DNA of 56,444 nucleotides from assembly GCA_949283275.1 (NCBI GenBank), contig CASDRW010000120.1, forward strand, positions 1 to 56,444. Direction: 5' to 3'. This document shows positions 19,541 to 20,881 of this stretch, in pieces. The notes below the pieces were generated by a model. The model did not search any database. It was not told the DNA's origin and saw nothing but the letters and a program-made list of their open reading frames with translations. Positions within the stretch are counted from its first letter, which is position 1; each line of letters opens with the position of its first letter. Position numbers and translations under genes: made by a program. This stretch comes from an uncultured Pseudomonadota bacterium (GTDB taxonomy: Bacteria; Pseudomonadota; Alphaproteobacteria; RF32; CAG-239).

Positions 19541-20881
19541 TTATCGTCCGTTTGCCCCCTGCTGTAAAACAACCTTTGGTTGTTTAGGAGGTTGTTGCGG
19601 TGTTTGTTGTTTATTTTTCAAATCAGCCACAGCCTGTTTAAGCTTGTTTTGCGTCTCCGGAGCAAGCTTTTGCAAAAATTCATTATTCATCTCAGGCGCG
19701 CCTATCATTTGCGCCGGCGGATCAGCTTCCATACACGCCAGCATCAAACAAGCCTTAAACTCCGGCGCTTTGATATTGCCGAATTTTAGGGGCAAGTTTT
19801 GTTTTTTTGCATAAGCCACAATATCACGAAAGCGTTGCATATCGGGAATTTTGGGGTTGCCGTCGCGGTCTTTGGCGGTAAGAGCAATGGTTGTTTTGTT
19901 GGTTGCGGTAATTTTATCAATACAGCCGTCAGGATGAGTAATCATTGCAACATAGTGTGCGGCCTGAGCATCTTCATCATATTGGGCTTTTTGCCTCAAA
20001 GCCGAAATCTTAAACATCGCCCGCAAATCTGTTTTGAAAGAGGTGTCGGTATTTGATGTTGCGGGGGTTGTTGCTTGGTTTTCCTCATCATCTAGAGTAA
20101 TATGGTTGGGGTTTTTGCGTTCAAAACTGAGGACGTTTTGCATATAATCGCGCATTGAGGCCATACAATTGGCACAAAATGGTTCTTTAAGCTTTTTGCG
20201 GCGGTTAAAACTTTCATCTGTGTAGGCATATTCATACATCAGGCAGTTTTCATCTCTGCAGTGAGCGCCAAGGTTGTTGACCGTGTTTTGGCGCCCCTCG
20301 TGTGTGGCATTAAAAGCATGCCCCAATTCATGAATAACAATATCTTTGAAATAAGCTTTCAAATCATCGCCTTGATAGCCGAGTGCGGCACAAGTTCCGG
20401 CAGAAACATTAATGCCGAGTTCGTTTGAAATCCCTCTGATATTGCCATGAGCTCGTTGTTTGGTAACATTAATCAAAATCGGGGTTCTGGCGCTATATTG
20501 GTTGCCGGCACTGTCAGATTGCAAACAAGAGAGTTTTTGAATATCAACCATGCCGCCACGAGAAGCCAAAGCAATTTGTTTTTGCAAAGATGCCTTGTAC
20601 GAGCCGTCGGGGAGCCTGTCAAACATCTGCCAAAAGCTTTGCTCATCAAAAACATCGCCTCGGTTTTGATAAACTTTCTTATTCATTTCTACAATTGTTT
20701 CTAATGTATCAATATTTTTATAAGGCAAATTGCCTTCTTTAATTGCAAAATTGTCTTTATATTCAGGAAACAAGTTGATAAAGTCTTGGACGGCTTCTTT
20801 AGTCCAATTAATGTATTTTTCATCAAGCCCTTTTTCAAAATTAAAAAAGAAAGTTTTCATTGTTTGTTTTTCCCAAAGCAT
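19541..20881 (-). CDS. archaemetzincin-like (M54-type) zinc metallopeptidase fused to an unknown C-terminal domain
   Basis: 446 aa. Motif region is HELGHAFNATH(184-194)-12 aa-HCRDENCLM(207-215)-20 aa-CANC(236-239). It is followed by about 190 aa with no recognisable motif and a Gln/Pro/Lys-rich tail. An alternative start is Met8. Confidence 0.6.
   Translation of the reverse strand: MLWEKQTMKTFFFNFEKGLDEKYINWTKEAVQDFINLFPEYKDNFAIKEGNLPYKNIDTLETIVEMNKKVYQNRGDVFDEQSFWQMFDRLPDGSYKASLQKQIALASRGGMVDIQKLSCLQSDSAGNQYSARTPILINVTKQRAHGNIRGISNELGINVSAGTCAALGYQGDDLKAYFKDIVIHELGHAFNATHEGRQNTVNNLGAHCRDENCLMYEYAYTDESFNRRKKLKEPFCANCMASMRDYMQNVLSFERKNPNHITLDDEENQATTPATSNTDTSFKTDLRAMFKISALRQKAQYDEDAQAAHYVAMITHPDGCIDKITATNKTTIALTAKDRDGNPKIPDMQRFRDIVAYAKKQNLPLKFGNIKAPEFKACLMLACMEADPPAQMIGAPEMNNEFLQKLAPETQNKLKQAVADLKNKQQTPQQPPKQPKVVLQQGANGR

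Follow-up and report, generated by a model that had tools for sequence, protein, structure and literature searches.

An archaemetzincin-like protein fused to a lineage-specific C-terminal module: a candidate type IV secretion effector of an uncultured gut alphaproteobacterium

The subject of this analysis is a minus-strand gene coding for a 446-residue protein between polA and gyrB of an uncultured gut alphaproteobacterium (order RF32, CAG-239). The gene lies in a window of 56,444 nucleotides (contig CASDRW010000120.1), by which we mean the whole stretch of DNA that was analyzed. The protein combines two parts. The N-terminal part (the head) belongs to the metzincins, is related to archaemetzincins and has all catalytic residues intact; it represents a new bacterial variant, and this assignment is firm. 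The C-terminal part consists of a folded module and a short basic tail, together referred to below as the cassette, and the same module is found behind many unrelated heads. We consider it an even prospect that the protein is a protease effector delivered by a type IV secretion system (T4SS), with the cassette serving as the delivery tag. An exported or effector role had been proposed in a first-pass annotation of the DNA, and judging by the features described below such a role is plausible. A literature search returned no published description of the protease-cassette family, and nothing relevant on RF32 or CAG-239 in connection with type IV secretion.

The N-terminal part is related to archaemetzincins

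The AlphaFold2 (AF2) model of the protein (predicted local distance difference test, pLDDT, 84.7) features a five-stranded sheet, a backing helix (residues 21–36) and an active-site helix (171–189) that holds the sequence HELGH. The best PDB match of this model in a Foldseek search was the archaemetzincin AmzA (2x7m; E-value 7.6e-6, template modelling score 0.63 on the target), and reprolysins and fragilysin ranked next. The first-pass annotation had placed an archaemetzincin-like catalytic module within the N-terminal ~255 residues, and both the structural match and the profile comparisons bear this out.

The gene has a family of 23 homologues. Among 1.8 billion representative proteins, a profile search detected 307 relatives, including stand-alone bacterial proteins of ~200 residues. 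The profile of the gene's own family (A1) matched that of the stand-alone family (A4) over residues 90–256 with an hhalign probability of 99.86% (E-value 3e-31). The A4 profile, in turn, matched the solved archaemetzincins 2x7m, 3lmc, 3zvs and 4axq with E-values ranging from 3e-13 to 1e-9. Pfam Peptidase_M54 (PF07998) was detected at E<0.01 in 14 of the 32 A4 members, in one of them above the cut-off. The homology of the head to archaemetzincins is solid but indirect, as it runs from A1 through A4 to the solved structures.

The most conserved stretch of the family, EAVQDFINLFPEYKDN (residues 25–46, nt 20743–20808), is near-identical to EALQDFFRLFPEYKNN of human cathepsin A (4az0, residues 129–152). 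This likeness to cathepsin A (lysosomal protective protein) is insignificant (E-value ~0.4) and was treated as chance.

The zinc signature and its third ligand

The motif HELGH...HCRDENCLM...CANC, reported in the first-pass annotation, is present at exactly the positions given there. Residues 184–194 read HELGHAFNATH, H207–M215 read HCRDENCLM (C-x4-C-x-M) with 12 residues between H194 and H207, and CANC (C236–C239) is found 20 residues past M215. The published archaemetzincin fingerprint is HEXXHXXGXXHCX4CXMX17CXXC (PMC3427221). Compared with it, all His, Glu, Cys and Met positions are kept, but Gly is replaced by Asn, 13 residues are inserted before the HC pair and the last spacer has a length of x20 where the fingerprint has x17.

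Homologues retain the motif residues, and the findings that would have refuted the first-pass annotation did not arise. In an alignment of 18 sequences (down to 34% identity) no variation is seen at H184, E185, H188, G205, H207, D210, C213, M215, C236 and C239, and almost none at C208. The zinc motif is not a chance match. The same holds for a larger set of 93 distinct motif instances: the Glu of HExxH and the His preceding the first Cys are kept in all 93, and the Met of the Met-turn in 87. Features that define the metzincin clan are thus found together, namely HELGH within an active-site helix, a His at the position of H207 and a Met at that of M215.

Two His residues that follow HELGH come into question as the third zinc ligand. 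H194 has the canonical +6 spacing, but it is replaced by Asn or Phe in two members of the 18-sequence alignment. Of 59 fusion proteins, 45 have His at this position, compared with just one of 34 stand-alone proteins. In the HMMER alignment, AmzA has a 13-residue gap between HELGHTFGL and GHC. Since H207 is invariant and H194 is not, and since the gap in AmzA lies before GHC, the insert precedes the conserved third His. By homology, the third ligand is H207, the His of the archaemetzincin HC pair, and H194 is a lineage-specific extra residue. The first-pass annotation had put the insertion after the third His and has to be corrected on this point. The insert (THEGRQNTVNNLG), which contains the nonconserved H194, is part of a predicted beta-hairpin in the AF2 model, and such an insert is typical of a bacterial subfamily. 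Based on these correspondences, the head looks like an active zinc endopeptidase of the archaemetzincin branch of metzincins. Its catalytic zinc would be bound by H184, H188 and H207, with E185 acting as the general base and M215 forming the Met-turn. C208, C213, C236 and C239 would make up a second, structural Cys4 zinc site.

A head of this kind might also have no proteolytic function. CarG of Myxococcus xanthus, a bacterial archaemetzincin homologue, is a transcription co-factor without protease activity, and Archaeoglobus fulgidus AmzA is inactive in assays (PMC3427221); moreover, one relative of the present protein (L068) has lost the Met of the Met-turn. By analogy, the 446-residue protein could be a regulator using zinc only as a scaffold for protein-protein interactions. 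We find this quite improbable: in CarG the catalytic Glu is replaced by Gln (PMC3427221), whereas in the 93 motif instances the Glu is always kept, the Met is rarely lost, and the remaining ligands are invariant except for C208, which is nearly so.

Two loci deserve mention in connection with the motif. The relative just mentioned (L068:8675-10999, G072:C6), located in the same chromosomal slot, has a divergent head with HEFSH ... GVHCATKGCIG, in which Gly has replaced the Met. This head may be a decaying or repurposed protease. The Alphaproteobacteria metagenome-assembled genome (MAG) HGM16772 (L031) codes within one locus for two paralogous stand-alone archaemetzincin-like proteins of 287 and 296 residues, which have the long-insert motif and no C-terminal module.

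A C-terminal module shared by unrelated heads

The module is predicted to fold with good confidence, both as a part of the full-length AF2 model (pLDDT ~90) and alone (pLDDT 87.3, predicted template modelling score 0.77). The predicted elements are, in order, a helix, a four-strand meander, a helix, a strand, a helix and two C-terminal helices. In the linker that precedes the module, residues 269–277 have pLDDT <50, and it is here that homologues carry an inserted domain of ~330 residues.

The module had been described as an unrecognized domain in the first-pass annotation. This description stands: Foldseek, run against a copy of the PDB that extends to April 2026, gave no match at E<=0.001 (best E-value 0.03, probability 0.15) and none of significance among viral structures (best E-value 4e-3, uncharacterized Campylobacter phage proteins), and no match was found in Pfam, PHROGs or, by tblastn, in plasmids. 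On the basis of these searches, XVIPCD, BID, relaxase-associated and phage origins of the module were rejected as far as homology is concerned. What has to be revised is the impression that the domain is unique to this protein. In the profile search (1.8e9 proteins), profile positions ~240–430 were found at or near the C-terminus of proteins ranging from 190 to 1713 residues and having unrelated N-termini. These other heads include a DnaJ-domain protein, Ppx/GppA-domain proteins and proteins with other HExxH motifs.

The module is followed by a tail that has a net charge of +3 in the 446-residue protein and pLDDT <50. Module bearers have basic tails with abundant Gln, Lys and Pro, which often end in a characteristic way. 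A GGR(x0-2) terminus is present in 29 of 109 bearers compared with 5 of 1518 long open reading frames (ORFs) of the host genome, and the final residue is Arg in 50 of 109 bearers, compared with 69 of 1078. Over the last 30 residues, the net charge averages +3.4 in the bearers and +0.8 in the genome background. The GGR end is retained despite a domain of ~280 residues inserted ahead of it.

In many relatives (L061:8709-11165, L063:2986-6462, P0021, P0022, P0068) the module is followed by a domain of ~300 residues with the sequence pattern WKLHLDVVPN ... GKGMTIYVGSYDD ... ESYCSHKLYQKHLGEFYCGKD (also WKLHLDVVPN...GKGMTIY). This domain has no Pfam or PDB sequence match.

An accessory gene in the polA-gyrB slot

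According to record titles, the relatives come from uncultured gut Alphaproteobacteria sampled from humans, chickens, rabbits and ruminants. The module is present in 108 of 151 genomes of the order, in one to four copies each; the host genome has a single copy, with no further module or protease copies found there. In a class-wide sample of 301 genomes the module occurs in the same family, and elsewhere there are just three weak matches. The protease head is less common. Across the order 51 of the 151 genomes have it, and within the genus 6 of 34. The claim of the first-pass annotation that the protein is lineage-specific applies to the module, which is nearly confined to one family, but the gene itself is not a fixed property of the lineage.

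Where present, the gene is almost always divergent from gyrB and usually convergent with polA. We inspected this slot in 20 genomes of the same genus, picked for lacking strong module matches. In 18 of them polA directly abuts gyrB, with gaps of ~110–185 bp in 11 genomes, ~510–560 bp in five and ~1.3–1.4 kb in two. In three further congeners (L061, L063 and L066) the slot harbors the module behind an unrelated helical head, and in one (L068) the module behind the divergent protease head. The gene is therefore an accessory insertion of one gene into a slot that many congeners leave empty, and this explains why it stands alone at the locus. Its isolated position, convergent with polA and divergent from gyrB, had been recognized correctly from the sequence: polA (16807–19530) ends 10 bp from it, stop to stop, gyrB (21034–23463) begins after a 152-bp gap, and neither gap contains an ORF.

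No module or head can be recognized in the longer empty slots (~1.3–1.4 kb in L080 and L094; ~0.5 kb in L085, L086, L089, L090 and L095; minimum ~120 bp), which may be what is left of cassette genes since lost.

The gene evolves faster than its surroundings. Among relatives its identity is 28–94%, compared with 79–99% for gyrB. Against the closest relative (L002), the ratio of nonsynonymous to synonymous substitution rates (dN/dS) is 0.21 for the gene, 0.025 for gyrB and 0.088 for polA; the value of 0.21 indicates purifying selection. In the same comparison (19544–20881 versus L002:8001-9338), dS is 0.17 for the gene, far below that of the flanking gyrB (0.55) and polA (0.90), which hints at a recent recombinational transfer of the gene alone.

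Type IV secretion as the putative route

The small host genome (1.44 Mb) encodes VirB4, VirB3-like, VirB10/TrbI, VirB11-like and VirD4-like proteins, the last on contigs C17 and C61. As VirB4 is present in a single copy in 150 of the 151 genomes of the order, a chromosomal T4SS is core to the lineage. The type VI secretion sheath gene TssC was not found in the host genome, and its one FHIPEP gene is presumably flagellar. No N-terminal hydrophobic (Sec-type) signal is visible in the 446-residue sequence. Generic properties of T4SS substrates are present, namely a basic and disordered tail together with a T4SS and a VirD4-like coupling protein in the same genome.

Taken together, protein architecture, tail composition, accessory behavior and co-occurrence with a T4SS make delivery the best-supported mechanism, to which we assign about equal chances of being right and wrong. 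The two-module protein would be made in the cytoplasm without a Sec signal. The cassette would be read as a tag by the VirD4-type coupling protein of the core chromosomal T4SS, the folded domain docking onto it and the basic disordered tail starting the transfer. Once outside, the protease would act by cleaving proteins, either within a target cell or in the environment. A broader proposal, about which we are somewhat less confident, is that the module and the basic Gln/Pro/Lys-rich tail ending in GGR make up a type IV secretion signal of a class not described so far. This signal would be specific to the rvh-like chromosomal T4SS that is core to a prevalent order of uncultured gut Alphaproteobacteria with small genomes. 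The corresponding effectors would turn over fast by head swapping (archaemetzincin-like, J domain, Ppx/GppA-like and others), partly at the polA-gyrB hotspot, and the present protein would be the first translocated effector of the archaemetzincin type.

A number of observations weigh against delivery of an active protease. With respect to the head, none of the direct models of the M54 family reaches its curated cut-off, so that the HMMER comparison suggested in the first-pass annotation fails at the direct level. PF07998 (gathering score 24.4 bits) is not listed for the 446-residue protein in a Pfam search even at E<=10, and NCBIfam archmetzin NF033823 (cut-off 145 bits) scores 11.3 bits (E-value 0.25). 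The only direct Pfam matches are to Reprolysin, below threshold (E-values 0.004–0.06). When searched against PDB sequences, the A1 profile finds 2x7m only at an E-value of 2.6 and nothing significant; phmmer with the protein itself gives nothing significant either. In addition, solved archaemetzincins are proteolytically inactive in standard assays (PMC3427221). With respect to delivery, the universal presence of the T4SS in the order deprives the phyletic profile of discriminating power. The cassette is unlike any known T4SS signal domain in fold (Foldseek against PDB) or sequence (Pfam). The host genome has just one cassette gene, a small number for a set of effectors. No linkage between cassette and T4SS genes was found: they are located either on separate contigs or ~90–190 kb apart on shared ones. 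A Cys4-zinc protein must unfold for passage through a T4SS. Finally, secretion, VirD4 binding, zinc content and proteolysis are all putative.

Some of these observations, along with others, fit the main alternative, according to which nothing is secreted: the protein would be a cytoplasmic protease, and the module would dock varied enzymes onto a common intracellular structure or partner. J-domain and Ppx/GppA heads represent typical cytoplasmic activities, and archaemetzincins are intracellular as far as known (PMC3427221). The missing linkage to T4SS genes and the single cassette copy point in the same direction. Yet an accessory distribution, seen here in the empty slots and the patchy occurrence of the protease head within the genus, is unexpected for a targeting domain with a housekeeping function. 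Nor would such a domain be expected to have its heads swapped at one locus or to diverge so fast, and it offers no obvious role for the conserved basic disordered tail ending in GGR. We therefore regard intracellular docking as unlikely, though as the most serious competitor of T4SS delivery.

Delivery could also be directed at other bacteria. In this case the protease would be an antibacterial toxin of the X-Tfe type, injected into rivals by the T4SS, with the cassette in the role of XVIPCD. The layout is alike: a variable N-terminal enzyme, a folded C-terminal domain of ~120–150 residues and a Gln-rich tail (PMC8740702). Competition between bacteria would also be favored by the density of the gut habitat. 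On the other hand, the short distances to the polA stop and the gyrB start leave no room for an adjacent immunity gene, and a J-domain head is atypical for a bactericidal toxin. The module has no sequence or fold likeness to any solved structure in the PDB copy used, and its predicted alpha-beta4-alpha-beta-alpha order differs from the alpha-alpha-beta-beta-beta arrangement of the XVIPCD fold (PMC8740702). This makes the toxin explanation improbable.

Export by a route other than the T4SS, such as a type I system reading a C-terminal signal or outer-membrane vesicles, is the least probable of the alternatives, and we think very little of its chances. It would agree with the C-terminal location of the signal-like features, and what implicates the T4SS is its co-occurrence. 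Substrates of type I systems tend to be acidic proteins that have Gly-rich repeats and lack cysteines, and the basic tail and Cys4 site of the 446-residue protein are unlike them.

The secretion machinery of the host has some further peculiarities outside the window. Two contig regions (C129:8206-17351 and C136:13947-22993) encode large T4SS components reminiscent of the expanded rvh components of Rickettsiales. One is a 1553-residue ORF with the TrbI/VirB10 domain only at its C-terminus, preceded by ORFs of 1166 and 538 residues and followed by a VirB11-like gene; another, of 2058 residues, adjoins the VirB3-like and VirB4 genes. On a third contig (C17:3240-5240, minus strand) there is a 666-residue low-complexity, coiled-coil-like protein that ends in ...KSRGGRN and has no module match. 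It is located two genes upstream of a VirD4-like gene (C17:1-1432) on the same strand. With the GGR end that it shares, this protein may be a further substrate or else an accessory component of the T4SS.

Gene structure

Coordinates of the features are collected in Table 1. The gene is the sole long ORF in its region, whose plus-strand frame is riddled with stops. The spacer shared with gyrB contains a sigma-70-like candidate promoter that has 11 of 12 consensus matches and a TG preceding the -10 hexamer. Its end is just 13 nt before the first ATG, and most homologues in the 18-sequence alignment begin with MKTFFF, which corresponds to M8. For these reasons, translation probably starts at M8.

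Table 1. Features of the 446-residue protein gene and their positions in the window
Feature	Residues	Position (nt)	Strand	Basis
Whole ORF, 446 aa and stop; probable start M8 (ATG at 20860)	1–446	19541..20881	-	ORF call, homologue alignment
Archaemetzincin-like metzincin catalytic domain	8–256	20114..20860	-	AF2 model, Foldseek, profile comparisons
Extended zinc signature: HELGH, 13-aa insert, H207-C208-x4-C213-x-M215-x20-C236-x2-C239	184–239	20165..20332	-	sequence, homologue alignment, HMMER alignment, motif instances
Insert of 13 residues relative to solved archaemetzincins (THEGRQNTVNNLG)	193–205	20267..20305	-	alignment, AF2 model
Inter-domain linker	257–277	20051..20113	-	homologue alignment, AF2 model
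C-terminal module	278–425	19607..20050	-	profile search, structure prediction, order-wide survey
Disordered Gln/Pro/Lys-rich basic tail, ends ...QQGANGR	426–446	19544..19606	-	AF2 model, tail statistics
Sigma-70-like promoter, TGGACA-18-TATAAT		20894..20923	-	consensus match only

Significance

The new elements of this analysis are the reassignment of the third His, the evidence for empty slots and head swapping within one genus, and the tail statistics. Archaemetzincin structures have been known since 2010, and effector-like gain and loss combined with an apparent delivery cassette would provide a concrete setting in which to seek their substrates. The cassette could serve as a sequence handle for listing candidate secreted proteins of widespread uncultured bacteria of the human and animal gut, which would make it testable what the T4SS of this lineage delivers and to whom. 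Head swapping between polA and gyrB, for its part, is a clean natural case of what would be modular effector evolution.

Comparison with known systems

The nearest named family of the head is that of archaemetzincins (MEROPS M54, PF07998), which includes AmzA of Methanopyrus kandleri (2x7m), the proteins of Archaeoglobus fulgidus (3zvs, 4axq) and Methanocorpusculum labreanum (3lmc), and human AMZ1 and AMZ2. Shared properties are the predicted metzincin fold, the helix with HExxH, the HC pair formed by the third His and the Cys directly after it, the C-x4-C-x-M Met-turn and the CxxC that would complete the Cys4 zinc site (PMC3427221). The 446-residue protein differs by the 13-residue insert between HExxHxx[G/N]A and G-x-HC, by Asn in place of the canonical Gly, by the 20- rather than 17-residue spacer before CxxC, by an extra helical insert (~57–130) and by the fused 150-residue module with its tail. 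The stand-alone A4 proteins from Gamma- and Alphaproteobacteria MAGs share the pattern HExGHxFGAxxxxRxNTxExLGxHCxNxxCVMQQ...CxxC, including the 13-residue insert. They lack the module, the tail, the conserved N-terminal segment WTKEAVQDFINLFPEYKDNF and, with the single exception noted above, the +6 His, while keeping the canonical Gly.

As for the overall layout, the protein resembles X-Tfe effectors of Xanthomonadales and other bacteria, which likewise have a variable enzyme head, a conserved folded C-terminal domain (XVIPCD) and a Gln-rich flexible tail, with several such proteins per genome and a chromosomal VirB/VirD4 system (PMC8740702). XVIPCD is the signal that binds VirD4 (PMC8740702), while for the present module the VirD4 link is only putative. 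No similarity of the module to XVIPCD was found in sequence (Pfam) or fold (Foldseek against PDB), its secondary-structure order is different and there is no adjacent immunity gene.

A second parallel comes from within Alphaproteobacteria. Bep effectors of Bartonella have a BID domain and a positively charged tail behind swappable N-terminal effector domains. The two-part C-terminal layout, a folded domain plus a basic tail, and the swappable heads are thus common to both. The domains themselves are different: BID is a helical bundle, whereas the module is predicted to be an alpha/beta fold and gives no Pfam match. Moreover, BID occurs also in relaxases, while the module was not found on plasmids.

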